The notes beneath the pieces were generated by a model that ran no database searches, had not been told where the DNA came from, and worked only from the letters and a program-made list of their open reading frames with translations. The translations under genes and the position numbers were made by a program. Of a stretch of DNA of 64,000 nt, positions 43,856-58,771 are shown in pieces (positions within the stretch are counted from its first letter, which is position 1; the number at the start of each line of letters is the position of its first letter). The stretch spans positions 98,306-162,305 of the forward strand of contig JAIETH010000002.1 of NCBI GenBank assembly GCA_019745315.1, given 5' to 3'. This DNA comes from Patescibacteria group bacterium (GTDB lineage: Bacteria > Patescibacteriota > Minisyncoccia > Phycocordibacterales > UBA918).

Positions 43856-45253
43856 TCACTTTAAAAGAGCACGAATCTGACCAAGTTCTTCTTCGAGGAG
43901 TGTATCCCCTTTTAAATCTTTTTTAATCTTTTCGCATGAGTGGATTACTGTAGTGTGATCTCTTCCTCCCATCTTTTGTCCGATGGCTGGGTACGATATT
44001 TGGAAATCTTCTCGAAGGATATACATAATGAGTTGTCGAGGCTTCACCACCTCTTTCCGACGAGTCTTCTCATAAATACTTTCAGGTTCAATATCAAAGA
44101 AGCGTGCTATTTTTTCAACAACATCTGCTACTGCAAGAGACTTACGTGGACGAGTGCTGTTTTTTATAAGAGATTTTACTTCGTCTATCTCAAGTGCGCG
44201 TCCAGAGAGCTGAGACTGACACATGATGGTGTTAAGTGCTCCTTCGAGCTCACGAATATTTCCCTCAATTGTTTGAGCAAGGTGTTCGATAACGCTCTCG
44301 GTAAGCATTATGTTGTTTTGTGCCGCCTTTGCACGAAGTATTGCTATGCGTGACTCAAAATCAGTGCGAGGTATATCAACAATCATTCCCTGCGCAAATC
44401 GTGACTGAAGACGCTCTTCCATGTTGTGCATAAGGCGCGGATGAACATCAGATGAAAACACAATCTGCTTGTTATTGTCGTGAAGCGCATTAAATAGATG
44501 AAAGAGCTCTTCTTGAGTTTTCTCCTTATTAGAGAGAAACTGCACATCGTCCATGATGAGTGTGTCGTACTGGCGGTACTTGTCCTTAAAGTTATTGGCG
44601 GTTCCGTTTTGAAGAGAGTTCATATAATCCACAGTAAAACGCTCGCTCGTGACGTAAAAAACTTTTTTCCCTTGTTTTTTAAGGTGGTTACCAATCGCTT
44701 GGATCAAGTGTGTCTTTCCGTGACCTGTAGGTCCATATATAAACAGTGGGTTGTAGGCTATTCCAGGCTCACGAGCAACTGTCTGAGCAGCTGCATGGGC
44801 AAGTTGATTAAATGGACCAACAACAAAACTCTGAAAGGTATATTTCGGATTAAGATTGTCGCTCTTATTTATGTAGTACTCCTCAAGAGGGAGCGCCGCA
44901 TTCACTGTTTGAGGCTTTACCTTATCTATTTTCTTGTCAGTGCGTGCAACAACCGTATATTCGACATTCCGCACATGGTGTGAAAGGTCGCGCAGTGTTT
45001 TTAGTATGAGGCTATGGAATTTATCGGAAAGCCAGTCACGTACAAACACACTTGGTACACCGAGGGTTATGGTCCCATCTTCGAAAGACACTATATGTGT
45101 ATCTCGGAACCACGTTTTAAAGTTAGCAGTTGATATTGAGAGCTCAATATTGACCAACGAATTGTCCCACAGCTGTTTTACATCAAGATATTCAGTACGA
45201 AGTGCATGTATTGAGGTTTGAGAAGAAGCATTCATACAAAAAGTCTTAAGCAT
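43856..45253 (-). CDS. dnaA: Chromosomal replication initiator DnaA. Start taken at MLKTFCMNASS, which is preceded by GGAGAG.
   Basis: GPTGHGKTHL Walker A, AAA+ box VII, C-terminal DnaA-box-binding HTH (YPAIGQKMGGRDHTTVIHSCEKI). The 94 upstream codons of the listed ORF fall in the AT-rich origin spacer. Confidence 0.9.
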   Translation of the reverse strand: MLKTFCMNASSQTSIHALRTEYLDVKQLWDNSLVNIELSISTANFKTWFRDTHIVSFEDGTITLGVPSVFVRDWLSDKFHSLILKTLRDLSHHVRNVEYTVVARTDKKIDKVKPQTVNAALPLEEYYINKSDNLNPKYTFQSFVVGPFNQLAHAAAQTVAREPGIAYNPLFIYGPTGHGKTHLIQAIGNHLKKQGKKVFYVTSERFTVDYMNSLQNGTANNFKDKYRQYDTLIMDDVQFLSNKEKTQEELFHLFNALHDNNKQIVFSSDVHPRLMHNMEERLQSRFAQGMIVDIPRTDFESRIAILRAKAAQNNIMLTESVIEHLAQTIEGNIRELEGALNTIMCQSQLSGRALEIDEVKSLIKNSTRPRKSLAVADVVEKIARFFDIEPESIYEKTRRKEVVKPRQLIMYILREDFQISYPAIGQKMGGRDHTTVIHSCEKIKKDLKGDTLLEEELGQIRALLK

Positions 45254-45432
45254 TATACTCTCCACAGTCTGCATGTAAACAGCTGAGCGTAAAAAATACA
45301 AAACTAGTGTGAAATAACGATATCCCACACCCAAAATAGATGACTGTGTACAACTCTGTGTATAGCTGTATATAAAAAAGCTCGTCAAGTACGGTGGTTG
45401 AAATATGTTTGTGTATGGTGTATTGTGTGCGC

Positions 45433-45570
45433 ATGTCAAAAAGAACCTATCAGCCAAAGAAGCGCAAGCGTGCAACCACCCACGGTTTCTTGGCGCGCAC
45501 AAAAACAGCAGGAGGAAAGGCTGTGCTTCAGGCACGTCGAAGAAAGGGACGAGCTAAATTAGCTGTCTAA
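45433..45570 (+). CDS. rpmH: 50S ribosomal protein L34
   Basis: [45 protein letters not shown], 45 aa. Below the ORF-track length cutoff, so not listed there. Confidence 0.95.
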
Positions 45571-45929: not shown

Positions 45930-46670
45930 ATGTGGACTACCATTTGGCATACTTTCTTTTTTGATCCAACATACAACCTTCTTATTTTTATTGCTGGGCT
46001 TGTGCCTGGAGGGGATGTTGGTATTGCTATTATTGCATTCACCATCGTGATGAAGCTTATACTCCTCCCCCTTTCCCTAAAGGCTGCGCATACACAGTAT
46101 GTTATGCGACTGTTGGAGCCTCGTCTAAATGAGATTAAAGAAAAGTATAAAGAAAATAGAGAGGAGCTTGCTAAGAAAACAATGGCTGCCTACAAAGAGG
46201 CTGGTGTTAATCCACTCCTGAGCATTCTTCTGTTGTTCATCCAAATTCCAATACTCATAGCACTTTTCTTTGCAGTTGCTTCTGGAGGGGGCGTTAAGTT
46301 GCCCGATGTTAATGTGGATCTTCTGTATTCATTCATCTCGCACCCAGGGATGCTCACCATGCAGTTTTTTGGTGCCTTCGATATAACTCAAAAGAGTATC
46401 GTGCTAGCACTCTTGGCGGGTGTTACACAATATATACAAGGACATATATCCCTTCCCCCTCTTAAGGAAAAGACGAGTACAGAGCCAAATCTTAAAGACG
46501 ACCTTGCACGTAGTATGCAGCTCCAAATGAAGTATATGATGCCTATCGTCATCGCTATCGCTGCATTTACTACCTCTGCTGCGATTGCTCTCTACTTTGT
46601 GGTCAGTAACCTCATGGCTATTGCTCAAGAGTATGTTGTACGGAAACAGATTCCTAATCGCCACGTATAA
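45930..46670 (+). CDS. yidC: Membrane protein insertase YidC (short form)
   Basis: 246 aa, 5 transmembrane segments, MKLILLPLSLK, GVNPLLSILLLFIQIPILIALF. Confidence 0.9.
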   Translation: MWTTIWHTFFFDPTYNLLIFIAGLVPGGDVGIAIIAFTIVMKLILLPLSLKAAHTQYVMRLLEPRLNEIKEKYKENREELAKKTMAAYKEAGVNPLLSILLLFIQIPILIALFFAVASGGGVKLPDVNVDLLYSFISHPGMLTMQFFGAFDITQKSIVLALLAGVTQYIQGHISLPPLKEKTSTEPNLKDDLARSMQLQMKYMMPIVIAIAAFTTSAAIALYFVVSNLMAIAQEYVVRKQIPNRHV

Positions 46671-46729: not shown

Positions 46730-47917
46730 TTACTGAGGTATGTTATGAAGCCAAAGGCTGTCATCCTTTTTATTTTTGAAAATTGCTCGATATTCGGACA
46801 CGCGTAGGTCTAGCACATCTATCTCTTCTCGAGATTTCTGAGTCAGGTCAAGCGCCACAGAAGTCGCCCCTGTCGATGTTCCCACGGTAAAGAGTGTATC
46901 TGCGTAGGAGACAGTGCCTCTATACCAGTCAACAGGAAATGAGGTTGTTTTCGCGCTATCACTTGCCGCACACAACATGCGTATCTCTGACGCCCCACAT
47001 TTCTCTCGCAAAGTTGCGAGAGAGACAAAGTTTCCAATCCCCGTTTGTATGTTTAAAAGAAGTCCGTACGGATCACTTCCTGAGTTTTTGGTAACCAAGA
47101 GTGTATTGGCATCTATGCGGAGAGCCACAAGGTTTTTTGATTGGTCTATTTTAACGAGATTGTTTCCTGATATTCCGTACAGATAGCCCATAAATCCAAT
47201 CGCTGGTTTTGTGTAGACGTAATGTTTTTTATTCTCCCAGATATCCCACAAAACGGCTCCTTCTCCGAAAGGTAGAGAGAAGATTTGTGAAGCCGTACCA
47301 CTTTGGAGGTTTCGTGAATACCCCAAAAGACCACCCTCCGTACTCTTTCGTGTATAAAAGAGTTGTCCTTGTGCTCCAAATGCAATATTTTCTAGGCGTG
47401 GCGTTTCTTCAAGTGATATTTCAACAGATCCGCTATCTCCTGTGGCGAGGCTTCCAATGAATGTTTCTCCTTGTGTGCCATCTATATCGGTAATAATAAC
47501 GACGCGATTACCCGATGGTGACCAATATGATTCTACAACATACGGAATTGTTTGATTTGACACTCGTGTTTCTATCCCTGTTTCAAGTGAGATGTCGTAT
47601 ACATGCCCTGTACCCTTAGTCATGTAACGTACTACAAGCCCATCCGTGGTTGAGGCGATTACAGCCCCGGCTACAGGCCGTTCGGTGAGCTTGGTAAGCT
47701 CTGCTCCGATAGGTATTGTTCTGTCTTCTTCATAGTCGTCGACCTGATCTTCCAAGGCAACAGGAGTGGGCCCCGTGCTTACTGTAGTATTTTCACCAAA
47801 GATATTGTCCCGAATATCCTCAATGCTTTTTGGAGCACCATTGAGTAATAGATATATCCATACTCCCCCAAGAATGAGGATAAGAAGTACAAGGATGAGT
47901 ATAAATATTTTTTTCAT
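46730..47917 (-). CDS. Secreted protein (signal peptide), beta-rich; last gene of the T4SS-like cluster
   Basis: 395 aa, N-terminal transmembrane/signal segment MKKIFILILVLLILILGGVWIYLL. Confidence 0.5.
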   Translation of the reverse strand: MKKIFILILVLLILILGGVWIYLLLNGAPKSIEDIRDNIFGENTTVSTGPTPVALEDQVDDYEEDRTIPIGAELTKLTERPVAGAVIASTTDGLVVRYMTKGTGHVYDISLETGIETRVSNQTIPYVVESYWSPSGNRVVIITDIDGTQGETFIGSLATGDSGSVEISLEETPRLENIAFGAQGQLFYTRKSTEGGLLGYSRNLQSGTASQIFSLPFGEGAVLWDIWENKKHYVYTKPAIGFMGYLYGISGNNLVKIDQSKNLVALRIDANTLLVTKNSGSDPYGLLLNIQTGIGNFVSLATLREKCGASEIRMLCAASDSAKTTSFPVDWYRGTVSYADTLFTVGTSTGATSVALDLTQKSREEIDVLDLRVSEYRAIFKNKKDDSLWLHNIPQ

Positions 47918-47958
47918 AAAGTATTAATTAAAAGAAAGATCATGCATATAAAAAGTTT

Positions 47959-48612
47959 TTAAGGTACAAGACCTGTACATCTTCGACAAATACCTCCTGC
48001 AGCTCTACATTGCGGCACATTATTTTCCGCACAACAAAGTACTGTGTTGGTGTCGCATGTCCTACATTCAGGAGTTCCGTCTGGAAATCTTCTCCCTGTA
48101 AAGTTTAGATTGCTTCCTGTGCAACCAGCGACGTCGCTCGTGGTCGCTGTCCCCCCAGTAGTCGCTCCAGGGCTTTGTGTTGCAATCGAAACCGGAGGTG
48201 CACCACGTAACGGATCAAGTTTTATCTCTCCTGAAATAGTCTCCAAAATGAGTACCGTGGAAAGTATTAAGAGAAGCCCCGCAAGAGACGCAGTTATGGT
48301 TGCTTTTGCCTCCCCCATCCCCCCATGATTCCCAGCCGAAGAGAGGTATTTGAAACCAGCAAAGCTAATTTGGAATACTGCAGCAAGTGCACCAATGGTT
48401 ATGGCAAGTCGGTACCCAGCATTTAAGAGGTTTACGAGTCTATCCTCATCTCGTCCACCTATGTCGGTGAGTCCTGGGATACCAGCGAGAGGTTGGAATT
48501 CTTGAGCAAAGGTATGGGTTGGGGCTATATATACAGAAAGAAGGAGGATAGCGAGAATATAAAAATACAGAAAAAAGAAAAGTCCTACTGAAGCTTTTTT
48601 ATTTCTAACCAT
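47959..48612 (-). CDS. VirB2/TrbC-like pilin-family protein, paralog 1: a signal peptide, a two-transmembrane-helix pilin-like core, and a short Cys-rich C-terminal tail
   Basis: Core QEFQPLAGIPGLT...LAITIGALAAVFQISFAGFKYL...ATITASLAGLLLILSTVLILE; tail with CxxC pairs (CRTCDTNTVLCCAENNVPQCRAAGGICRRC). Confidence 0.45.
   Translation of the reverse strand: MVRNKKASVGLFFFLYFYILAILLLSVYIAPTHTFAQEFQPLAGIPGLTDIGGRDEDRLVNLLNAGYRLAITIGALAAVFQISFAGFKYLSSAGNHGGMGEAKATITASLAGLLLILSTVLILETISGEIKLDPLRGAPPVSIATQSPGATTGGTATTSDVAGCTGSNLNFTGRRFPDGTPECRTCDTNTVLCCAENNVPQCRAAGGICRRCTGLVP
48163..48531. repeat. 369-bp segment 100% identical to 49080-49448, the shared core of the two pilin-like genes
   Basis: Exact nucleotide identity checked by eye from ccccagtagtcgctccagggc... 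to ...caaaggtatgggttgg. Both flanks diverge. Confidence 0.9.
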
Positions 48613-48703
48613 AATTAGTAGTCACAAAGAAATATCTTGCGTATCGTCATGTGTATCTATGATACCACTGGTTTCTGCGTGGATAAGTATATGTACACAA
48701 ACA

Positions 48704-49564
48704 TTACTGGGTTAGATAACAGGTGCCACCTCTGGGATCATACCCCTCTCTACATTCAGTTTCTATAGTTCCGTACGAGTACAAAAGACATCCTGCTTGC
48801 CCTCCTCCGGGGGGTTGTACGAATTGATACCCGGATTCGCACTGCGCATCTCCAGAAGGTTCTGTAAGTAGTGGTACGCATCCAGAGTTACCCCACTGCA
48901 CATTGAGACTGCCATCACATCCAACTTCTATATATATAGGCTCAGGCTCACGTTCAGTGCTGGTTTCTATTGGGGGAGTCGTGTTCGGGGTGCAATTTGT
49001 TGACGATCCTTGTGATGCTCCAGGTTGACAGACTCTGCCGATCTCAGGATTTCCTGTTCCGCCTGTCAGTGCTCCACTCCCCCCAGTAGTCGCTCCAGGG
49101 CTTTGTGTTGCAATCGAAACCGGAGGTGCACCACGTAACGGATCAAGTTTTATCTCTCCTGAAATAGTCTCCAAAATGAGTACCGTGGAAAGTATTAAGA
49201 GAAGCCCCGCAAGAGACGCAGTTATGGTTGCTTTTGCCTCCCCCATCCCCCCATGATTCCCAGCCGAAGAGAGGTATTTGAAACCAGCAAAGCTAATTTG
49301 GAATACTGCAGCAAGTGCACCAATGGTTATGGCAAGTCGGTACCCAGCATTTAAGAGGTTTACGAGTCTATCCTCATCTCGTCCACCTATGTCGGTGAGT
49401 CCTGGGATACCAGCGAGAGGTTGGAATTCTTGAGCAAAGGTATGGGTTGGTGTTCCGTGCAGAGAGAAAATAATATTCCCAAGAAGGATTGCGTGGGCAA
49501 GAAAGAACAATACTTTTGATCCTCGCATACTACTTAAAGTCCACCCTAAAGGTGTTTTCTGCAT
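48704..49564 (-). CDS. VirB2/TrbC-like pilin-family protein, paralog 2: a different signal peptide, an identical core, and a longer Cys-rich C-terminal domain
   Basis: 286 aa; C-terminal 130 aa has 8 Cys (VCQPG...NCTPN...GCDGS...GCVPL...CESGY...CLLYS...CREGY...CYLTQ). Confidence 0.45.
   Translation of the reverse strand: MQKTPLGWTLSSMRGSKVLFFLAHAILLGNIIFSLHGTPTHTFAQEFQPLAGIPGLTDIGGRDEDRLVNLLNAGYRLAITIGALAAVFQISFAGFKYLSSAGNHGGMGEAKATITASLAGLLLILSTVLILETISGEIKLDPLRGAPPVSIATQSPGATTGGSGALTGGTGNPEIGRVCQPGASQGSSTNCTPNTTPPIETSTEREPEPIYIEVGCDGSLNVQWGNSGCVPLLTEPSGDAQCESGYQFVQPPGGGQAGCLLYSYGTIETECREGYDPRGGTCYLTQ
49080..49448. repeat. Second copy of the 369-bp identical pilin-core segment
   Basis: see 48163-48531. 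Confidence 0.9.
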
Positions 49565-50504
49565 ACTGAGAAAGCACTGCGAGATTGCGAAGAGAGAAAC
49601 CGATGGTCGATACTCCTCCAGATCCTGATTTCTGAAGTGTGATTACTTGAGGATCACTCGTTGTATTATTCACACGCCCACCGTCTATTGTCCAACCATA
49701 TTCTGCGTTGTTGTATACAGTCGAGTCTATTGAATACGGCTGCGCACGGAGAGTCACTTCGTTTGTTGTTTGATAGTAAGAATCTTGTATTGCATTTCTA
49801 GAGAGTCCTGTAAGTGGACTGTAGGTATAAAATTGTAACGAAGGCTCCTCGGTCTCAATATAAAATGTCTTTTCATAGGTAGCTGATCCGTCGCGAGATG
49901 TTGCTGACAGAAGTACTAACGGGCTTCCGAATATTGGCAAAACCAGATCAAGAACAGGTCGCCCGCCATTCTCAATTATTTTATCGTCTACATTCCAACT
50001 ATAAAGTACGTCAGAGGGAGGAACTGGGGTGCCATTTGCATAGAACATCCGCGGAGCTGCGGTAATGCGAGCACGTGTTCCAATACTCGGAGTTGCTCTT
50101 CCTTGGTAAAAATAAGGAGCCATACTGGTGCCCTCTGTAATAATGTCTATTTCTTGAGGAACTACTATAGTGGAGATCTTCCCTCCTCCGCGAGAAACTT
50201 CTATTTTCATAGGTTCACCGAAGGCCGGAGCTACAAGCACAATAGCCATCTGATTTTTTTTATCAGGTTGCAGTACGCCGTTTATATACCAGGAAATATC
50301 GCCGCTGCCCAAAGTACCACTGTAATCTCCTAGGCGAGCAGTGAAGTTTGCCCCAGCTGTCACATTTAAAGGAGACAGTTCAATTGCTGCTGCTTGTCCG
50401 CCAAGGCTAGTTGTTTGTGCTGAAGCTTGATTCCCCCCAAGTATCAAAAATGCACAAAAAATAAGACCTAGAAAAATAGAATGCGTAGTGTTAGATGAAA
50501 TCAT
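49530..50504 (-). CDS. Secreted hypothetical protein of the T4SS-like cluster
   Basis: 324 aa, signal peptide (IFLGLIFCAFLILGGNQASA); overlaps neighbouring genes by 4 and 35 nt. Confidence 0.5.
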   Translation of the reverse strand: MISSNTTHSIFLGLIFCAFLILGGNQASAQTTSLGGQAAAIELSPLNVTAGANFTARLGDYSGTLGSGDISWYINGVLQPDKKNQMAIVLVAPAFGEPMKIEVSRGGGKISTIVVPQEIDIITEGTSMAPYFYQGRATPSIGTRARITAAPRMFYANGTPVPPSDVLYSWNVDDKIIENGGRPVLDLVLPIFGSPLVLLSATSRDGSATYEKTFYIETEEPSLQFYTYSPLTGLSRNAIQDSYYQTTNEVTLRAQPYSIDSTVYNNAEYGWTIDGGRVNNTTSDPQVITLQKSGSGGVSTIGFSLRNLAVLSQYAENTFRVDFK

Positions 50505-50935
50505 GCGTTATTTAAAGATGCTCTGCGGGCAACAATTTCAGATCGTCGTATACGTTGCTGACGTCTCATTTCTTGCTGAGCTTCTTCTAGTCTAGCATTT
50601 TGTTGTGCTCTCTCCTTGTCTTCAAGGCGAGAAGTGTGAATGACTCGCCATGTCCACCACGTAAGAGAAGGCATAAATTGCCCTGCAAGCGGTGTAAATT
50701 CAGATATAAAAACCACAAAAATGCTTTTAGTAGTAAAAGGTGTTACGTTGCTTATCATAAAGATAAAGCTATAGACAACGAGTATAAAAATTGTAAGGGC
50801 AAAGCTGAGCGCAATGGCAACTATCGAAAATACAAGGGTAAAAAAAAGAAATCCAAGTAGTACTTGAATTCCGTCACAAATTATAGCGAACAACAGTAAT
50901 CCAAATCGTGTTGTGTCTGAAATGCGGTGTTCCAC
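50501..50935 (-). CDS. Small polytopic membrane protein of the T4SS-like cluster
   Basis: 144 aa, 3 transmembrane segments, basic coiled C-terminus. Confidence 0.45.
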   Translation of the reverse strand: MEHRISDTTRFGLLLFAIICDGIQVLLGFLFFTLVFSIVAIALSFALTIFILVVYSFIFMISNVTPFTTKSIFVVFISEFTPLAGQFMPSLTWWTWRVIHTSRLEDKERAQQNARLEEAQQEMRRQQRIRRSEIVARRASLNNA

Positions 50936-50941
50936 AAAATA

Positions 50942-52756
50942 CTATTGAGTAGCGTTTAATTCCTCGCGGGCTTTTTTGATCTGCAAAAGTTGTGATGGAT
51001 CAGATGTTATGATCTGGTCTTCAGTATAGGACGCTATGATTTTAATAGCGACATGTTTAAGTCCCGCAAAGAAAATTCCTTCCCCTACTCCCGACTCGAG
51101 AAGAAGGAATTTTTCTTCGTCGGTGAGGTTAAATGCTTTTTGGAGACTATCAATCGTTGTTGGAGATTGCTTCATTAAGAGCTGTATGGAAGAGTTTGTG
51201 AGCATTGGAACTCCATATGGAGAGTTAAGAAAGTCGTTTACATCTTGAGTGATGGTTGCAAGTCCCAAATAGTACTTACGGCCACGTTTCGCAATACCAA
51301 AAAGGAATGACGCAGTATCTTCTGACTTCATCATCCACCACGCTTCATCTATCACAAGAAGTCGCTTCTTAAGTGTGCGGCGTACTGCGCTCCAGATATG
51401 GTGCGTAATCATGTACATAGCAATGGTTTTCAATTCCTCCTCCATGTCGCGAAGTGAAAACACGATAAAGTGCTCATTAATATCAACATTTGTTGGACGA
51501 TTCATGAAGCCTTCCCATGTACCTCGTGTGTATTTAGAGAGGCGCTGTACCAACGACTCGCTTCCCTCCATGCCAGAAAGTATCATTTCAAGATCTGAAA
51601 GAAGTGGTGGCTCCATGCCACTAAAGTCACTGTGCTGGGTTATGTCCTTAAGGGCATATGTCTCAGTGATAGCCCTATCGATGATTGCGTCCTCGTCAGG
51701 AGTGAGGCCGGAAAGCATAAGTCTAAAGAGACCCACAAGATTTATGATATGAGAGCGTAACACCTCCTCTGGTGTTTCGTCTGCAAGAAGTTCAGGCAGG
51801 TCAAAGGGGTTGATGTGGTGAGGTGACGAAAGTGAGATATTGAAGAAGCGCCCCCCTGTCGCTTCTGCGAGGTATTCGTATTCATGCTCAGGGTCTATGA
51901 CGATCACTTCCGTACCAAACATAAGCGAGCGAAGGATTTCGAGCTTTGCGGCGTACGACTTACCTGATCCAGACGTTGCAAATGTTACTGAGTTGTAGTT
52001 TTCAAGAGAGAATCTATCAAAGAGTACGAGAGAAGAGTTGTGTCTATTGATACCGTAGAGAATCCCTGTATCAGCGGTAAGGTCAAATGAGGTAAAGGGG
52101 AAAAAGCTTGAAAGAGGCTCCGAGTTGAACTTCGAGTTCACAGAAAGCTCGTCGTTTCCTATTGGTATAGACGAGCGAAACCCTTCTTCTTGTTGAAAGA
52201 GAGCTGGTTTAAGGTAGATCAGGCGTGAGTCAAGAATTGATCGAACATCAGACTCCGTCTTGTCCAACTCTTCTTCGTTCATTCCGTAGATGGTGATATA
52301 GAGACCTACATCAAAAAGCCTCTCTTCAGCTTGTTGGAGTTTATCGCGGAGAGCTTCAAGGTTTTGATACGCAGCTTCGAGCTGCGGATCTCGCACAAAC
52401 CCCTTCTCTTCCCTCGTGCTCATCTGGCTTTGAACCTCAGCAACCTTTTTTCTGAAGCTCTTAAGGACATCATTTGTATCCATTGGGTGCACAAAAATGG
52501 ATACATCAAAAACTTTTTCCAAGTTAAGTATTGGTTCAAGCCATCCCTCACTCAGATAGCGAGGATATGCAACAACAAAAAAAGATCGAGCAAGGCGGCC
52601 GCTGACATTGATCTGACGAGGTGTTACCCCTATCGCCGAGGGGGCTATAACATCCTTAAGGTCAAGCGAGCTGGCATCATAAATCTCCTGAGGGAGCGCT
52701 CCTTCAGCGTCTTGTCCTTTTTTCTTTTGTATAAAGTCAAATAATCCCATGCTCAC
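50942..52756 (-). CDS. VirB4/TrbE/CagE-family conjugal-transfer-type ATPase, C-terminal (ATPase) portion. It is separated from its N-terminal domain by a single in-frame TAA.
   Basis: Walker A TSGSGKSY, Walker B LLVIDEAW, VirB4-typical RKYYLGLATITQ; the listed start is a GTG. Confidence 0.8.
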   Translation of the reverse strand: MSMGLFDFIQKKKGQDAEGALPQEIYDASSLDLKDVIAPSAIGVTPRQINVSGRLARSFFVVAYPRYLSEGWLEPILNLEKVFDVSIFVHPMDTNDVLKSFRKKVAEVQSQMSTREEKGFVRDPQLEAAYQNLEALRDKLQQAEERLFDVGLYITIYGMNEEELDKTESDVRSILDSRLIYLKPALFQQEEGFRSSIPIGNDELSVNSKFNSEPLSSFFPFTSFDLTADTGILYGINRHNSSLVLFDRFSLENYNSVTFATSGSGKSYAAKLEILRSLMFGTEVIVIDPEHEYEYLAEATGGRFFNISLSSPHHINPFDLPELLADETPEEVLRSHIINLVGLFRLMLSGLTPDEDAIIDRAITETYALKDITQHSDFSGMEPPLLSDLEMILSGMEGSESLVQRLSKYTRGTWEGFMNRPTNVDINEHFIVFSLRDMEEELKTIAMYMITHHIWSAVRRTLKKRLLVIDEAWWMMKSEDTASFLFGIAKRGRKYYLGLATITQDVNDFLNSPYGVPMLTNSSIQLLMKQSPTTIDSLQKAFNLTDEEKFLLLESGVGEGIFFAGLKHVAIKIIASYTEDQIITSDPSQLLQIKKAREELNATQ

Positions 52757-52762
52757 TGTTTG

Positions 52763-53386
52763 TTATTGTGGCGGCAGTGCCTTCTTCCCTTCGTTAGGAT
52801 TAAATATGTGATAAAAGAGGTCAACAACTTCATTTGTTCCAAGGGTGACTGTTCGTACTCCAACGCGCGCAAGTCCCTGCTCCACCACTGCGATGCGTTG
52901 TTCGAGCTGAGAACGATCCTCCTCAAATGCATCGTCAGGCAAGACATTCTTTTTTTTGGAATTTCCAAAGAGTGACTTCAATCCTTTCGACACATCAACT
53001 TTTGCGGGAACATACGAAACAATGACAAAAAAGCTCTTTGTCATAATATCAGTATCATGAGCAAATGATCGAATAAAACCGATGTATTCTCGCAACTGTA
53101 CCTTCATGAGATCGTTCTTTTGTCCGGCTTCGCGCGAAGCAAGGAGTTCGAGATAGGGATTGATATCAAGCTCTCGTGATTGTACGTAGAATTGTACTGA
53201 AAAATCGAGGGTGTTGAGGAAGTTTTGAAATTGACTGAGTATCGCCTGTTGCTCATCACTTGATTTAAGCGCAAAGTTAATTGAAGAAGCCATAAGAACA
53301 GCACGCAGGCTCCCATCCTTAAGAACCACGACCCCGTCACGGATCTCCTCAAGTGGTACAAATGATTGGGTTGGGTCAGTCGCCAT
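52763..53386 (-). CDS. VirB4-family N-terminal domain, encoded as a separate ORF
   Basis: SFVPLEEIRDGVVVLKDGSLRAVLMASSINFALKSSDEQQAI is the characteristic VirB4/TraC N-terminus. It ends with TAA at 52763-52765, in the same frame as the downstream ATPase ORF. Confidence 0.7.
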   Translation of the reverse strand: MATDPTQSFVPLEEIRDGVVVLKDGSLRAVLMASSINFALKSSDEQQAILSQFQNFLNTLDFSVQFYVQSRELDINPYLELLASREAGQKNDLMKVQLREYIGFIRSFAHDTDIMTKSFFVIVSYVPAKVDVSKGLKSLFGNSKKKNVLPDDAFEEDRSQLEQRIAVVEQGLARVGVRTVTLGTNEVVDLFYHIFNPNEGKKALPPQ

Positions 53387-53389
53387 ATA

Positions 53390-53800
53390 CTATCGTTTGT
53401 TTTGTAGGGCATTAATTTCAAGCTTACGCGCCATAGATGCAAGGCTGCTTGAGCTCGGAGGAACATAGCTTTGTGTGGCTGCGCCCTCTTTCTTCACTAT
53501 CTTTTTACTCTCTTTTCTCCACAGGTACAGTTTTGAGTGCATGAGATATCCAACAAATGATTCGAGGGTATTCACAAAGGGGCGCTCATTGTATCTATAG
53601 AATGCGAGCGCAACGGCGAGTGCCGCTATAGGTGTTCCGAATATAATGACAAATATAAATGGCAAAAAAGTGTAGAGAATAAAGAGTGAGCCCGCTCCTC
53701 CCACAAGATAAATAAATTGCTTCCACGTAAAGGGGCCAAAAATTTTATCTTCAATCTCGATAAATTGAGGGACTTCAAAACGCATACACGTATTATACAT
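53390..53800 (-). CDS. PrgI/TcpE-like small membrane protein (VirB3 analogue of Gram-positive-type T4SS)
   Basis: EVPQFIEIEDKIFGPFTWKQFIYLVGGAG followed by two transmembrane segments. Confidence 0.55.
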   Translation of the reverse strand: MYNTCMRFEVPQFIEIEDKIFGPFTWKQFIYLVGGAGSLFILYTFLPFIFVIIFGTPIAALAVALAFYRYNERPFVNTLESFVGYLMHSKLYLWRKESKKIVKKEGAATQSYVPPSSSSLASMARKLEINALQNKR

Positions 53801-53832
53801 GTGACGAGCGTATAGTTACGCACAGTGCTGTA

Positions 53833-54360
53833 TTACTCAGGCTTTTCTCTGTAGGGATCCTCAGTGTACTGAGGCATATTCGTCAGAGGTTTTGTGTATG
53901 ACGGAGGTTGGTATTGGGGAGTTGCTAAAGGTGAGGCTGATACGGGAGTGGCTTCTTCGATCAAGCGTTTTTGAAACACAGGCGTTGATTTTGCTACAGG
54001 CATGGTCTCCTTTGGAAGACTTGCTTCATGCACCTTTCTTTCATTCCATGCCTGCTTCATCTCTTCTCGCGCTTCCACAAAAATCGTTGTATCAATATCG
54101 CGTGCGATACTTGTAGCAACTGAGCCTGGGATGAGTAATTCTTCCATGATACGTTCCTCAAAACGATTACTGTCTTCAAAAGTGAGAAGTGTTAAGGTAA
54201 CCATTTCTCGAAGAATGCCAGCTTTGTCTTCAGGTAAGCGATGTTTTTCTGCAACAATCTGCACCGAAGAAGCAAGAGAGGGACGCATGATCAGGTTCTG
54301 CAGTTTTTCCGGCAGGCTCTCGAAACGTTCTCGTAATAGTGTAATAAATTGAGGATCCAT
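53833..54360 (-). CDS. Hypothetical protein of the T4SS-like cluster
   Basis: 175 aa, helical, no transmembrane segment. Confidence 0.4.
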   Translation of the reverse strand: MDPQFITLLRERFESLPEKLQNLIMRPSLASSVQIVAEKHRLPEDKAGILREMVTLTLLTFEDSNRFEERIMEELLIPGSVATSIARDIDTTIFVEAREEMKQAWNERKVHEASLPKETMPVAKSTPVFQKRLIEEATPVSASPLATPQYQPPSYTKPLTNMPQYTEDPYREKPE

Positions 54361-54380
54361 ATACTTTCTATGTCTTTAAT

Positions 54381-56288
54381 TTAATGATGGTCTCCACCCC
54401 CGCCACCATGTCCACCACCTCCGTGATCATCTCCGTGACCGCCGCCAGCATCAGGCTTGTGATCATCTTTTGGTTTTGATTCTCCACCCCCACCTCCTTT
54501 TTCCTTAGCTTTCTTTTCGGGTGGTTTATATTCTTCGCCCTTTTTAGCACTCTTTTTTTGCTTCTCAATATCATCTTTAATTGCTTTTTCAATAGCTCCC
54601 CCTTCTTTTTTATCATGCCCCGCTACGAGTCGACTGAACCAACTTCTGTCTTTTACTATCTGTGCGTATGAAGCTTGATTGGCGGTTTCTTTCTTTGCGA
54701 TTTCAGCCCGCTTGTCTGAAGAGCTTTCTTTATAATATTCCATCTCCATCTTTGCCTTCTCTGCCGCTTCTTTGTTTTTCTCTCTATTTGCTTCTTTGAG
54801 CTTTTCCTCTGCGGCATGAAGTGCGTCTGTGTCTTTTTTGAGAGCAGCTTTTTCAGCTTCTATTTCAGGAGTATCCTTCACATTAAGTGATCGAGCATAA
54901 TCCGCTTCGTCTTGTTTTTTACCTTTCAGCCAAGATTCGTAGTTTTCTTTTGAAGCTTTGCCTACGTCAAGATCCATTCCTTTTGTAAATTTACCGACGA
55001 GCCCATTAGCGCGAGCATCAAAAGAGCTTTTCTGTACCGATGTAATTCCTCCTGCGCCTACCCGAGCAAGTCCTCGGGTTATAGCCCAACTATTTTTGTT
55101 TGCTTGAACGCTCTTCAGGCCAGCAAGTCTTTTTTGAACAGCCTCACTATTGGCTGCTCGACCGATGGTCATTCTGCCCATATATCCGGTTGCTCCAAGA
55201 CTCGCTCCTACAGCTTTTCCTGCCCACCCCATCATTTTTGTGGTTTGAGACGCTCCTGCTGTGCTCATCTGTTTTGCCATTTTTGTTGTGCCTACTATCA
55301 GCACCATTGCAACAATGTAAAACATGAGAGTAGCGAGCGCAGCACTTTTGTCTCCCGGCAAGAAAAGTCCTCGTAGATTACCACTTTGTCCGTAGGGGGT
55401 GCCTTGAAGTATTAGCAAAGAAATATAGAGACCAAAAAGGTATATAGGGGCAAGAAATGCTTGGCTTGTGAGAGTAGACCACCACTGTTTTTTGTATTTA
55501 CCAAGCATAGGAACTTCACTTGGTAGAAATGCAATTGGAGACGTGATCATAAGTATAATAAGCATTGCAAATCGAGTGATGAGAAGAAAGGCCCCAAGTC
55601 CAAATGCTATTGCAAGAAGAAACATGAGGATACTACCTCCTACGGTGTATACAACTGCGTATGCGATACCTCCGCCATTTGGCTGCATAAATTGACTGAG
55701 CGCAGCTCTCTGCCCCGCACTATCTCCGCCTGCTTGAATAGACATGATGCCCATGCGAGCCATAAAAGCATCACTTATACCTCGCCCTTCTGCGCGACTC
55801 GCTGCATCAGATACCATTTTTTTATATACCGAGTCAGCAACAATATTAGAGACATCAATAATTGCTTTGGTAAAGAAGAGGCTAAAGTTTACGAGGAGCG
55901 CTGCGACAATAACTGAGGCGAGTCCTTTTTTAAGCCCCCCCATGCTGCCATGTACAATGGTCATAATACCTATGTATATAAGAGAGAAAACAAAAGTAAG
56001 GTTAACGATATCTCTAAACACAGACCATAATTGATCGATAGAAGATCCAAAGCCTTGCGTGCGAACCATTCCACCCATACCGATCACAAGTTGTGTTACG
56101 GCAAGGTTAAGGAGCCACCCCATAACACCCAAGAACCAGCCAAAAAGACTCAAGATTCCTACAAGAAGCCACATCACAACATCACCGACTGCGTCAGTGA
56201 TTCCCCAGAATGCAGAAGCTTCGTGGGGAATACCAAAAAGTCCAATGAGTACAAGTGCTGCTGTGCTGTAAAAAGTAACGCGTTTCAT
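54381..56288 (-). CDS. VirB6/TrbL-like polytopic membrane protein with a long Lys/Glu-rich and terminal Gly/His-rich cytoplasmic tail
   Basis: 635 aa; at least 7 transmembrane segments in the first 350 aa; tail ...GGGGGESKPKDDHKPDAGGGHGDDHGGGGHGGGGGDHH. Confidence 0.45.
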   Translation of the reverse strand: MKRVTFYSTAALVLIGLFGIPHEASAFWGITDAVGDVVMWLLVGILSLFGWFLGVMGWLLNLAVTQLVIGMGGMVRTQGFGSSIDQLWSVFRDIVNLTFVFSLIYIGIMTIVHGSMGGLKKGLASVIVAALLVNFSLFFTKAIIDVSNIVADSVYKKMVSDAASRAEGRGISDAFMARMGIMSIQAGGDSAGQRAALSQFMQPNGGGIAYAVVYTVGGSILMFLLAIAFGLGAFLLITRFAMLIILMITSPIAFLPSEVPMLGKYKKQWWSTLTSQAFLAPIYLFGLYISLLILQGTPYGQSGNLRGLFLPGDKSAALATLMFYIVAMVLIVGTTKMAKQMSTAGASQTTKMMGWAGKAVGASLGATGYMGRMTIGRAANSEAVQKRLAGLKSVQANKNSWAITRGLARVGAGGITSVQKSSFDARANGLVGKFTKGMDLDVGKASKENYESWLKGKKQDEADYARSLNVKDTPEIEAEKAALKKDTDALHAAEEKLKEANREKNKEAAEKAKMEMEYYKESSSDKRAEIAKKETANQASYAQIVKDRSWFSRLVAGHDKKEGGAIEKAIKDDIEKQKKSAKKGEEYKPPEKKAKEKGGGGGESKPKDDHKPDAGGGHGDDHGGGGHGGGGGDHH

Positions 56289-56294
56289 GTGTCT

Positions 56295-57872
56295 TTAGTC
56301 GCCACCTCCTCCACCATCATTATTGCCACGTGATCTTCGTGGGCACGGTTGAATCTCTGACGCCAATGCTTCAATGGTGGGTATTTTTTGATCCACCTCA
56401 AATTTGATGCCTGAATTTGTAATTGAAGTGTGTAGTGTTCCGGAAGACAGTATGGTTCCAAATTTCGTATACGACGAAAGCTTTTCTTCTTCAGATCCTT
56501 CATCTACCTTCTTTTGAAGCACCACAAGTTCCTCTACCGTTTTTTCTGATGCGACAATAGCAGAAAGAGCGATATCTTTTTCATCTTGGGCTTTTTTAAT
56601 CACCATATCATTTATGGTACACACTATAACTTCTTCTCCTTCAAGAATATCTTCTTCTGATGCAGCCGCTTCATCTTTTGCTTTTGTGATAATTGCGTCA
56701 GCAGCATTAACAATGCGTCGCTGTATTGCTTGGTATGTTTTTTCATCACTTATTGCAACAGCTATGGATCCTGCACCTGAGTAACCAACTGTGCCGCCGC
56801 TGCTGTACCCAGGATTACAGCCTTCAGTATTGATCTGTTCTATGTAGGTAAGTGAGTTACACAAATCGCTATTGCCCGCGCTTCCATCAAATCGCGAGGA
56901 GCTGTAGGTGTTGCTACTCCCCGTCAAAAGTCCTCGCGCCGCGGTAAGTCCTTGTTTAAGTGCTTGTCCAAGCAATGCTCCTATGATTTCGTTAATTTCG
57001 TCAGCCTCCAGAAGGGCTCGTTCTGTACCTTGGACAGTAAAGGAGAGTGACTGTGCGATAGTATCTCCCGGGGTTACGGTACGACATTTTTTAGGAGTTG
57101 CTTCGATCGGTGCGCCACTTTGTGTAGGTCCTTGTTGTGCGCCGCCAGTACATACTTCCCTACTTAAGAAGCCTCTTCCCCAATTTGCTTGGGTTTGGGC
57201 TCTTCCTTGGCTGCTAGAAATACTCGCTTGAAGTTGGATCGAACCAAAGACCCCCGACCCCATGGTTGAATTGATTGGACTTGTATTGATATCAAGCCAT
57301 GCTGGCCAGCCTCCAGCCATAAAGTTTCCTTGGATAAAGCGATCAACGTTTCCGACTGCGCCGCTCAATGTACACTGGACAGGTTTTCTGTTTCGTGAAT
57401 TTTGATATGCAAGATTGAGGCTAATACGAAGGTTGATAGGGCTACAAAGAAAGGCAAGATCGCTTCCATAAAGCACCTCTCCTGCTGCTTCGTCTGCAAT
57501 ATTGAGCATAAACGCCTGTGGATCCGTCATAAACATCGGACTTCCCTGGAATCCGCTATTGATCCAGCTTACTGTGCTTCGCGCCATCTCGGTTGCCACT
57601 CTTTTGGCAAGGAAGAATGCGACGCCATCAAGTGTCCACTCTTTTAAGTTCATTGCACTGAGCATTGAGGCGTTTATGCTTGTGCCGGCTGCGGTAATTG
57701 TATCTTGAAGCCATGACCCCCAGCTTTGAGGTGTGGCGTCAGCGACAACCTCTACAGGTATGGCGTGTGTTGTTTGAGGATTAATCGTTAATACTGAAGA
57801 GGCGAAAAGTATTGCCAAAAAGAAAGAGGCGAAAGTCTTGTTCTTTAAAAATAGAATATTTGAAAATTTCAT
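56295..57872 (-). CDS. Large secreted hypothetical protein of the T4SS-like cluster
   Basis: 525 aa with a signal peptide; 4-nt overlap with the upstream gene. Confidence 0.45.
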   Translation of the reverse strand: MKFSNILFLKNKTFASFFLAILFASSVLTINPQTTHAIPVEVVADATPQSWGSWLQDTITAAGTSINASMLSAMNLKEWTLDGVAFFLAKRVATEMARSTVSWINSGFQGSPMFMTDPQAFMLNIADEAAGEVLYGSDLAFLCSPINLRISLNLAYQNSRNRKPVQCTLSGAVGNVDRFIQGNFMAGGWPAWLDINTSPINSTMGSGVFGSIQLQASISSSQGRAQTQANWGRGFLSREVCTGGAQQGPTQSGAPIEATPKKCRTVTPGDTIAQSLSFTVQGTERALLEADEINEIIGALLGQALKQGLTAARGLLTGSSNTYSSSRFDGSAGNSDLCNSLTYIEQINTEGCNPGYSSGGTVGYSGAGSIAVAISDEKTYQAIQRRIVNAADAIITKAKDEAAASEEDILEGEEVIVCTINDMVIKKAQDEKDIALSAIVASEKTVEELVVLQKKVDEGSEEEKLSSYTKFGTILSSGTLHTSITNSGIKFEVDQKIPTIEALASEIQPCPRRSRGNNDGGGGGD

Positions 57873-58771
57873 ATATTCTCTAGGGAATTTTTTAAGGCAA
57901 TCAAGAAATACCCGGGCTCCAAAAGATCATAGGTAATTCCTTGAGAAGTAAGGTTGTTTGTAACTCCAATAAAAGCTTGTCCGAGCATCTCTGCCTCAGG
58001 AAGGTATTGCTGAAATCTCATGAGCGCAGGTAGTGGATCTGTTGGCATGTTACGCATTGCAAGTATGGTTGCATAGATAACCTGAAGTTGATTCAACAGG
58101 GCTAGATGTTCTTGGACAATGCTTTTGGGTACAACTACAGCGCGCACATCTTTGATAGTTCCTTCGTATGTTGCAATGATCGGATCTAGATCCTTTAGTT
58201 CTTCGTCATTTTCTGATTCAACTGCACGTTTAAATATTAGAAGCTCTCCTTCGTTTTTTAGTGGATGGTTAATAAATGCTGTGGCGAGACTATTGCCGTA
58301 GGCTCGTAGGGTCTCAGCATCTATTGCATTTGTCACAACAATATCTCTCTCAGTAAGGAGTCTGTCATTAACTACCATGTTCATGTCAACTAGGGAGCGT
58401 TCAAGCATTTTCTGCTTCTCTTCATCGGTCATTGATGTTTCTCCGGTCTTTTGGAGAAATTCACCAAAAAAGCGTTGTGCAAAGCGACTTGTGACAGTAT
58501 CAGGTACGGAAACAGGCTCAGCAGCTTTCTTTTTTGTTTCTGGAGAAGTATCTTTTACGAGAGGATTGGTGCCCTGGAGCTCCTCTTCCCAATCGAGTAC
58601 GCCATCGCCATCGGTATCTTTTACTCGTTGATAGTCGCGTGTTTCAGTTGAAGTGATCACTACCGCAGCGTTTTCCGTGCTGTCGCTCACTTGAGGACGT
58701 AAAAAGAGCGCGGTACCCATAAGTCCCACTGCGAGAAATGCAGCCCCTCCAATTTTCTTGTTCACACGCAT
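57869..58771 (-). CDS. Membrane-anchored hypothetical protein, first gene of the T4SS-like cluster (possible VirB8-like topology)
   Basis: 300 aa, a single N-terminal transmembrane segment, periplasmic domain. Confidence 0.4.
   Translation of the reverse strand: MRVNKKIGGAAFLAVGLMGTALFLRPQVSDSTENAAVVITSTETRDYQRVKDTDGDGVLDWEEELQGTNPLVKDTSPETKKKAAEPVSVPDTVTSRFAQRFFGEFLQKTGETSMTDEEKQKMLERSLVDMNMVVNDRLLTERDIVVTNAIDAETLRAYGNSLATAFINHPLKNEGELLIFKRAVESENDEELKDLDPIIATYEGTIKDVRAVVVPKSIVQEHLALLNQLQVIYATILAMRNMPTDPLPALMRFQQYLPEAEMLGQAFIGVTNNLTSQGITYDLLEPGYFLIALKNSLENI

Follow-up and report, generated by a model that had tools for sequence, protein, structure and literature searches.

Adjacent genes that match letter for letter in their middle and share nothing recognisable at one end raise the question of what keeps the common part the same and what the differing parts might do. 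Such a pair, henceforth para1 and para2, lies in a 64,000-nucleotide stretch (the window, analysed at its full length) of an uncultured, ultrasmall Patescibacteria group bacterium (contig JAIETH010000002.1, positions 98,306 to 162,305). An original prediction, made from the letters alone, saw here twin pilin-like genes and proposed gene conversion or recombination-based domain swapping. Our comparison with related strains and with known systems leads us to a more specific answer: para1 and para2 are probably tandem VirB2-like type IV secretion system (T4SS) pilin paralogs, whose core is kept identical by recurrent gene conversion and which would present two different tails on one scaffold. The pair is composed of the following parts:

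47959..48612, minus strand: para1, putative VirB2-like T4SS pilin paralog of 217 aa (open reading frame, Pfam PF18895 match at 18.6 bits, hydropathy, ortholog P0004)
48704..49528, minus strand: para2, putative VirB2-like T4SS pilin paralog of 274 aa with an acidic tail (PF18895 match, hydropathy, orthologs P0001 and P0002)
48150..48522, minus strand: core repeat copy 1, encoding the signal-peptide end, mature N-terminus, two helices, and linker (exact extension)
49078..49450, minus strand: core repeat copy 2, 100% identical to copy 1 (exact extension)
47959..48149, minus strand: tail1 coding region, 63 aa (sole homolog found, the ortholog on contig L003)
48704..49077, minus strand: tail2 coding region, 124 aa, with a hypervariable stretch between the 4th and 6th Cys (strain comparison)
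48613..48703, minus strand: unique 91-bp spacer, para2 to para1 (contigs L001, L003, and L004 colinear across it)

Base-by-base extension delimits an exact direct repeat of 373 bp (48150-48522 = 49078-49450), 100% identical between its two copies and offset by 928 bp, which sits inside the two adjacent minus-strand genes of 217 aa (para1) and 274 aa (para2). A perfect match of this length within 64 kb rules out a chance origin. The identical internal block of the original prediction is thus real, and the coordinates given for it there (48163-48531 and 49080-49448, 369 bp) came close, although the ends were a few bases off, with no single consistent offset. At the tail side of the repeat identity falls at once to ~30-36%, and at the signal-peptide side it fades over ~30-50 nt; signal peptides and tails of the two genes have diverged past nucleotide recognition, with zero changes in the core.

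At the protein level, para1 and para2 are 87% identical over 150 aa and 100% identical over a common block of 123 aa (THTFAQEF...ATTGG). Hydropathy analysis gives each protein an N-terminal signal-like hydrophobic segment and two further hydrophobic helices (segments 3-25, 65-83, and 98-128 in para2, with equivalents in para1). The polar loop FKYLSSAGNHGGMGEAK separates the two helices, and a Pro/Thr/Gly-rich linker then leads into the Cys-rich tail, in agreement with the predicted pilin-like layout of signal peptide, two hydrophobic helices, and variable, disulfide-rich C-terminal domain. Tail1 (63 aa) has 8 Cys and a net charge of +1, tail2 (124 aa) has 8 Cys and a net charge of -10, and blastp detects no similarity between them (best alignment 9 aa, E 0.46). 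The claim that the tails differ completely therefore stands, with the earlier sizes of about 60 and 130 aa slightly adjusted. The real start of para2 is likely the ATG at 49528, yielding a 274-aa product rather than the 286-aa longest open reading frame (to 49564), since this ATG abuts the upstream stop and the same start is called in other assemblies: the upstream 324-aa gene ends in ...GACTTTAAGTAG, followed by a T and then by the ATG (junction TAGTATG), and the para2 orthologs P0001 and P0002 are both called as 274 aa. A 19-aa stretch at 55638-55694, inside a 635-aa VirB6-like gene of the window, shares 53% of its residues with part of tail2 (E 0.016 by tblastn in the window), a resemblance that is probably due to chance.

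No third copy of core, tail, or signal peptide was found in the 64-kb window by tblastn and blastn, nor any third core among its six-frame open reading frames by a search with a core-profile hidden Markov model (HMM). Further C-terminal cassettes, which the original prediction had in view, are thus missing from the window by tblastn and blastn. Alignments of the spacer, signal-peptide, and downstream regions, where remnants of a larger duplication unit would lie, stayed at noise level. Promoter-like sites at the pair were no commoner than in shuffled sequence, and a terminator scan gave nothing convincing between para2 and para1.

A perfect repeat in metagenomic data could be the work of the assembler, which might have joined two alleles in tandem or mis-resolved a repeat and thereby produced the identity itself. 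We judged identity and copy number from assembled contigs, with the related strains all drawn from ENA, Logan, and NCBI data. One of these contigs, L001 (8.2 kb, ENA), matches the window at 99.4% identity across 6.5 kb and includes both pilin genes, so that the whole arrangement recurs. Contig L003 (93% identical) covers the end of core 2, tail2, the spacer, and all of para1 and reaches into a 395-aa gene, and contig L004 (92% identical), which comes from a freshwater metagenome, takes in para2 and the spacer together with the 324-aa gene on one side and the start of para1 on the other. The unique junction of tail2, the 91-bp spacer, and the para1 signal peptide is therefore spanned by single contigs not only in the window but also in three assemblies made independently from different samples (L001, L003, and L004). 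A join of two alleles would moreover require a spacer resembling the ends of the neighbouring genes, and the spacer resembles neither the upstream gene end nor the downstream gene start; these two observations together exclude such a join. On the other side, L003 and L004 break inside the repeat, and the building of a consensus could mask rare differences between copies. All told, we regard an artefact as extremely unlikely.

The artefact explanation can also point to a fourth contig, L002 (1,042 bp; ENA ERZ27249659 k119_184458), a circular unitig that yields a chimeric open reading frame. This frame, P0003, is a hybrid of the para1 signal peptide, the core, and tail2, and could be taken for a recombinant. 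We rejected it as evidence of recombination, since L002 has identical 119-nt ends, equal to the k-mer length, and a period of 923 bp, as expected of a circular graph loop. Most simply, L002 is an assembly-graph loop through the tandem repeat; an array amplified by unequal crossing-over in that population would look the same. Joint Genome Institute metagenome contigs, scanned with the protein alignment and again with a degenerate DNA pattern for LSTVLILETI.GE, returned no further strains. In eight relatives that are more distant but keep the gene order, the pilin slot is occupied by just one tailed pilin gene, from which we conclude that the duplication is specific to one species-level lineage.

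With the tandem established in several strains, the history of the core can be read from them. The two cores of L001 do not differ from each other, and relative to the window they share one synonymous change, GGG to GGA at core position 108 (G108A). Core 1 of L003 differs from the window at 9 sites, and the visible 79 nt of its core 2 equal its own core 1 and differ from the window at 5 sites. In L004 the two copies can be compared over 63 nt and do not differ there; relative to the window, each has the same 6-nt insertion (which adds Ser-Gln) and the same 5 substitutions within these 63 nt. The core thus differs from that of the window by 1 site in L001, 9-10 in L003, and ~41 in L004, and by 0 within each genome wherever both copies are visible. 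Nei-Gojobori estimates of synonymous (dS) and nonsynonymous (dN) divergence give the same picture: between the window and L004 the core has a dS of 0.546, a dN of 0.007, and a dN/dS (omega) of 0.01, with a dS of 0 within the genome and of 0.10 between the two strains for the adjacent 324-aa gene; between the window and L003 the core has a dS of 0.064 and the 395-aa gene one of 0.022.

Since the tails, spacer, and signal peptides of L001, L003, and L004 are orthologous to those of the window and colinear with them, the tandem must have arisen before at least four sampled strains split. Paralogs that had escaped conversion since then should differ at least as much as the orthologs do, that is, by dozens of synonymous differences, and zero were observed. 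Cores that are identical within genomes and different between them therefore indicate repeated homogenisation by gene conversion, which the original prediction had named as one of two options. Within-genome similarity exceeds between-genome similarity, derived changes are present in both copies, and the duplication predates the divergence, which together are the marks of concerted evolution. From strain to strain the block of identity ends at slightly different places, displaced by 2 nt at its 3' end in L003 and L002 and by ~10 nt at its 5' end in L004, as expected from independent conversion events. We conclude that conversion is ongoing and confined to the core. A diversity-generating retroelement, whose template and target would differ at adenine positions of the template, was rejected as an explanation, the repeats being without any mismatch over 373 bp.

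Perfect identity would also fit a very recent duplication without ongoing conversion, in which the tails were later replaced by non-homologous insertion, and the single copy of the distant relatives agrees with a young duplicate. However, the same tandem with orthologous parts is present in strains whose cores are 0.06-0.55 apart in dS, so the duplication predates their split; the copies in each genome are identical and carry strain-specific changes in both; and the core has no changes at all between genes whose signal peptides and tails have diverged beyond nucleotide recognition. Recent duplication alone is, in our estimate, scarcely credible. The textbook case of concerted evolution of bacterial paralogs by gene conversion is tufA/tufB, and the pilin pair resembles it in that paralogs within a genome are closer than orthologs, derived changes appear in both copies, and tract ends are sharp where homology ends. 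It differs in that conversion is limited to an internal module, creating a mosaic of diverged signal peptide, homogenised core, and non-homologous tail, and in that its direct repeats lie only 928 bp apart.

Between strains, no other part of the locus has diverged as far as the pilin genes. Strain-to-strain identity is 97-99% for flanking genes and 80-95% for pilin segments, and dS is 0.02-0.10 for flanking genes versus 0.45-0.55 for the pilin core and tails. Between the window and L003, tail2 has a dS of 0.45 and a dN of 0.13; of the 25 residues that differ, 17 lie within tail positions 71-95, and every one of the eight Cys is kept. A sister lineage (L005 versus L006) gives 64% identity for the pilin, with 91% in the core and 51% in the tail, and 82-98% for its neighbours. 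Strong purifying selection acts on the core (omega 0.01); the signal peptide has an omega of ~0.9 between strains, estimated from few sites. This divergence hot spot suggests either the import of old alleles or balancing or diversifying selection. What we claim for the tail parts is relaxed or diversifying pressure together with exchange of old alleles, short of proven positive selection.

A conserved constant region beside variable regions, at the divergence hot spot of a locus, is also what programmed antigenic or phase variation would produce, with one copy or silent cassettes donating C-terminal domains to an expression site. The model for such a system is Neisseria pilE/pilS, a type IV pilin with silent, truncated donor cassettes, in which conversion transfers the variable part. 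Like pilE/pilS, the pair has a constant part and a variable C-terminal, Cys-containing part, with gene conversion between copies. Unlike pilE/pilS, each copy here is a full gene that has its own start codon and signal peptide and sits in an operon-like arrangement, conversion acts on the constant part only, and the window holds no silent copies, nor indeed any further core or tail copy in its 64 kb. Exchange in the manner of pilE/pilS would draw on similar tails or related downstream flanks; here the tails are dissimilar and the downstream flanks unrelated. Since the tails are mutually non-homologous, recombination homogenises the constant part only and cannot shuffle tails, except through deletion or amplification by unequal crossing-over, and with homology on one side of the tails only, such events would be irreversible. 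Crossing-over in the direct repeat would indeed delete or amplify a tail, and the hybrid on L002 could be a real product of it; but L002 is fully accounted for as a graph loop, and the complementary deletion product, joining the para2 signal peptide to the core and tail1, was not found in the protein database. Programmed variation is thus very unlikely, and neither the cassette analogy nor the domain swapping of the original prediction held up: what the locus shows is concerted evolution within an already known type of gene array, rather than a cassette system for antigenic variation.

That kind of array is defined by the family to which the genes belong. Para1 and para2 each match Pfam PF18895 (T4SS_pilin) at 18.6 bits (E 0.002, profile positions 3-67 of 71), and both faintly match NCBIfam Mbov_0395, a pilin-like conjugal transfer family. 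A collection of 5.8 billion proteins contains 16 close relatives, 15 of which match PF18895 (best E 1.1e-5). A family-profile search against 1.84 billion representatives, run with no word index, retrieved 21,446 clusters at E <= 0.001, of which 9,720 at E <= 1e-10. Among ten top matches sampled (E ~1e-35 to 1e-63), seven match PF18895 and three exceed its gathering cut-off (P0030 with 34.7, P0087 with 29.5, and P0040 with 67.7 bits). Both proteins also have the signal peptide, two hydrophobic helices, and short polar loop of a pilin, and virB4 is close by, with PrgI, TrsD-like, and VirB6-like genes adjacent. Based on this transitive homology, architecture, and gene context, we place para1 and para2 as putative divergent members of the VirB2-like T4SS_pilin lineage. 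The pilus subunit of the original prediction is to that extent upheld as pilin-like, the affinity being with VirB2-like T4SS pilins and not with type IV pilins.

The Cys-rich tail appears to extend far beyond this pair. Among the best 150 profile hits (P0017-P0158), a sample biased toward tailed proteins because the query profile included tail columns, a C-terminal tail of 40 aa or more (median 143.5 aa) is present in 152 of the 154 single-core proteins, and 146 of these 152 have an even, non-zero number of Cys. These counts indicate that the architecture of a core plus a Cys-rich tail is common in sequence space, and this pilin lineage seems to have such a tail as a general trait, one that the published surveys consulted do not discuss. 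A homology search with tail1 alone gave no candidate and is uninformative, having missed the known ortholog P0004 too. Two proteins of the wider family, P0040 (891 aa) and P0077 (916 aa), contain three T4SS_pilin cores in one polypeptide, the 67.7 bits of P0040 being scored over three stretches; they are fused pilin arrays or unrecognised gene fusions.

The genes around the pair bear on its family. From the pair outward, the upstream order is the 324-aa gene, a 144-aa gene, VirB4, a TrsD/TraC-N-like gene, PrgI/VirB3, a 175-aa gene, a 635-aa gene, two genes for secreted proteins, and ksgA, all on the strand of the pair; downstream follow a conserved 395-aa protein, yidC on the opposite strand, and dnaA.

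49530..50504, minus strand: conserved 324-aa secreted or membrane protein, directly upstream of the pilin slot in all relatives
50501..50935, minus strand: 144-aa membrane protein (~180-250 aa in relatives; synteny)
50942..52756, minus strand: VirB4-like T4SS ATPase, 604 aa (NCBIfam conju_CD1110 at 372 bits, cut-off 325; Pfam P-loop_TraG at 5e-25)
52763..53386, minus strand: TrsD/TraC-N-like protein, 207 aa (weak TraC_F_IV match; syntenic genes carry PF26593, TraC-like)
53390..53800, minus strand: PrgI/VirB3-like protein, 136 aa (PF12666, PrgI, at 5.6e-11, above cut-off)
54381..56288, minus strand: polytopic 635-aa membrane protein, probably VirB6/TrbL-like (at least 6 hydrophobic segments; position)
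46730..47917, minus strand: conserved 395-aa protein with an N-terminal anchor, directly downstream of the pilin slot in all relatives
45930-46670, plus strand: yidC (Pfam)
43856..45535, minus strand: dnaA, origin-proximal marker (Pfam)

The 324-aa protein matches no Pfam family, and the 635-aa protein has no direct Pfam match; the gene at the position equivalent to the latter in contig L019 has weak TrbL matches. A separate homolog of the VirB4 N-terminus (TrsD) is typical of Patescibacteria T4SSs (PMC12102498), and a TrsD-like gene is described in the literature as their most abundant component. The cluster is the origin-proximal, relaxase-poor, monoderm-type chromosomal T4SS known from Patescibacteria (PMC12102498), and a scan of genome collections gave metagenome-assembled genomes of uncultured Candidatus Saccharibacteria as the nearest named relatives.

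Patescibacteria are known to have pilin arrays of 2-11 genes, in tandem or one gene apart and near virB4, in 383 assemblies (PMC12102498), and VirB2-like pilins set their T4SSs apart from those of other monoderms (PMC10633639, PMC12857230, PMC11665869). In Southlakia epibionticum, the one species tested, the T4SS cluster and its series of pilins are essential for epibiotic growth (PMC10633639, PMC12857230). The locus studied here resembles these arrays in its tandem PF18895-type pilins, two genes 91 bp apart, within a chromosomal, relaxase-poor, monoderm-type cluster with VirB4, TrsD, PrgI/VirB3, and VirB6-like components that adjoins dnaA, rnpA, yidC, and ksgA in a Saccharibacteria-related genome. 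It does not share their divergence: pilins within published arrays have a mean amino-acid identity of 25% and a maximum of 54% (PMC12102498), whereas para1 and para2 are 100% identical over 123 aa and 373 nt, differ only in signal peptide and unrelated tails, and owe their identity to gene conversion. At E 0.002 both would also miss the HMM inclusion threshold of that survey (i-Evalue < 0.001; PMC12102498).

The nearest analogue of paralogous VirB2 proteins with variable termini is found in Anaplasma phagocytophilum and A. marginale, in which several virB2 paralogs lie in tandem and combine a conserved signal peptide with two hydrophobic helices; diversity lies near the termini, including the C-terminus, and VirB2 is the most variable T4SS component between strains (PMC3556328). 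Anaplasma differs in being a diderm intracellular pathogen with small pilins that lack an added C-terminal domain, in having paralogs diverged throughout with no perfectly homogenised core reported, and in that its variability is read as antigenic variation toward the animal immune system (PMC3556328).

Several points weigh against our reading of the pair as concertedly evolving, tail-displaying VirB2-like pilins. Both proteins score below the gathering threshold of PF18895 (18.6 versus 26.6 bits) and so fall short of direct membership, and their proposed VirB2 homology is drawn from sub-threshold and transitive matches. A profile search of PDB sequences for solved structures gave no match even at E <= 10. 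AlphaFold2 models of both paralogs, run with an 18-sequence alignment, have a mean predicted local distance difference test score (pLDDT) of 42 and 50; the modelled secondary structure has helices at 51-87 and 92-123 with low confidence, so that the modelling of core plus tail foreseen in the original prediction suggests only a helical hairpin and gives no reliable structure for the tails. The second core is visible for 79 nt in L003 and 63 nt in L004, both contigs breaking in the repeat, and short-read assemblers can force near-identical copies to one consensus, hiding one or two differences. The dN/dS of the tails (0.11-0.30) is below 1, so positive selection is not demonstrated. Finally, the Patescibacteria T4SS pilus has itself been described as a possibility only (PMC12857230).

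These points leave room for the main functional rival, which accepts the same history with another function: para1 and para2 would be bitopic, membrane-anchored surface proteins, the hairpin would be a mere anchor, and the core would be kept for a shared T4SS partner. The tentative status of the Patescibacteria pilus (PMC12857230) favours it, as do the sub-threshold Pfam match and poor structure models, and tails of 63-124 aa on every subunit may be bulky for a tightly packed filament. Yet the core is homologous by profile to PF18895 pilins above the cut-off, and the termini of F pilin (TraA) lie on the outside of the F pilus, pointing outward, so that C-terminal additions are geometrically allowed (PMC5018250). 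We therefore consider the anchor possible but doubtful.

For the preferred reading of tandem VirB2-like pilins with a converted core, the following mechanism can be proposed. Non-reciprocal homologous recombination between the direct repeats homogenises the core, and each conversion tract would stop where homology stops, giving the hard 3' junction at the non-homologous tails and a soft 5' edge in the weakly constrained signal peptide, where accumulated mismatches would set the limit and let it shift by 2-10 nt among strains. Cleavage of the signal peptide at the predicted site TFA|QE would release two mature proteins with the same N-terminus and helices, which the T4SS machinery might handle as one subunit type, making co-assembly possible. 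By analogy with F pilin, the C-terminal tails would point outward and be disulfide-bonded, and the cell would gain two alternative surface or ligand-binding modules on one scaffold; an identical core would preserve co-assembly and the tails could evolve freely under pressure from host cells or phages. Both the co-assembly and the surface display are features that we infer. TraA provides a geometric basis for outward display and differs from para1 and para2 in having no detected sequence match to them, a mature length of ~70 aa without an appended domain, and a place in a diderm conjugative system. A tail displayed in this way would not be a tip adhesin (PMC5018250), and on this point the original prediction needs correcting.

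The locus amounts to a natural experiment, in which a pilin has been split into a core that must stay the same (dN/dS 0.01) and tails that are free to differ. This pattern speaks for a core that serves as an assembly or machinery-interaction module and for a tail that serves as an outward-facing specificity module, and it singles out the tails as candidates for host recognition, in a duplication confined to one species-level lineage and with a function that we infer. A bolder version is conceivable, though on present evidence unlikely. Here the two proteins would form a mixed filament or surface structure, conversion would keep the cores interchangeable, and the basic 63-aa and acidic 124-aa modules would recognise hosts. 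Crossing-over in the repeat would switch tails, and the tails would be a general host-range module of the Patescibacteria T4SS. If so, deletion and amplification variants arising through the 373-bp repeat would act as a population-level switch of displayed tails, of which the hybrid of para1 signal peptide, core, and tail2 on L002 could be one, and the Cys-rich C-terminal tail would be a general, so far undescribed host-range module of the Patescibacteria T4SS.

Two minor observations concern the neighbourhood. Across the proteins of the T4SS cluster (46730-58771), cytoplasmic and membrane proteins have 0-2 Cys each versus 8 in each pilin tail, and a secreted 525-aa protein (56295-57872) likewise has 8, a distribution that points to extracellular disulfide bonding in this organism. 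The dnaA open reading frame, read from its first GTG, spans 559 aa, compared with 472 aa for the ortholog in L001 and 449-532 aa in distant relatives; the true dnaA start is probably internal to the 559-aa frame.

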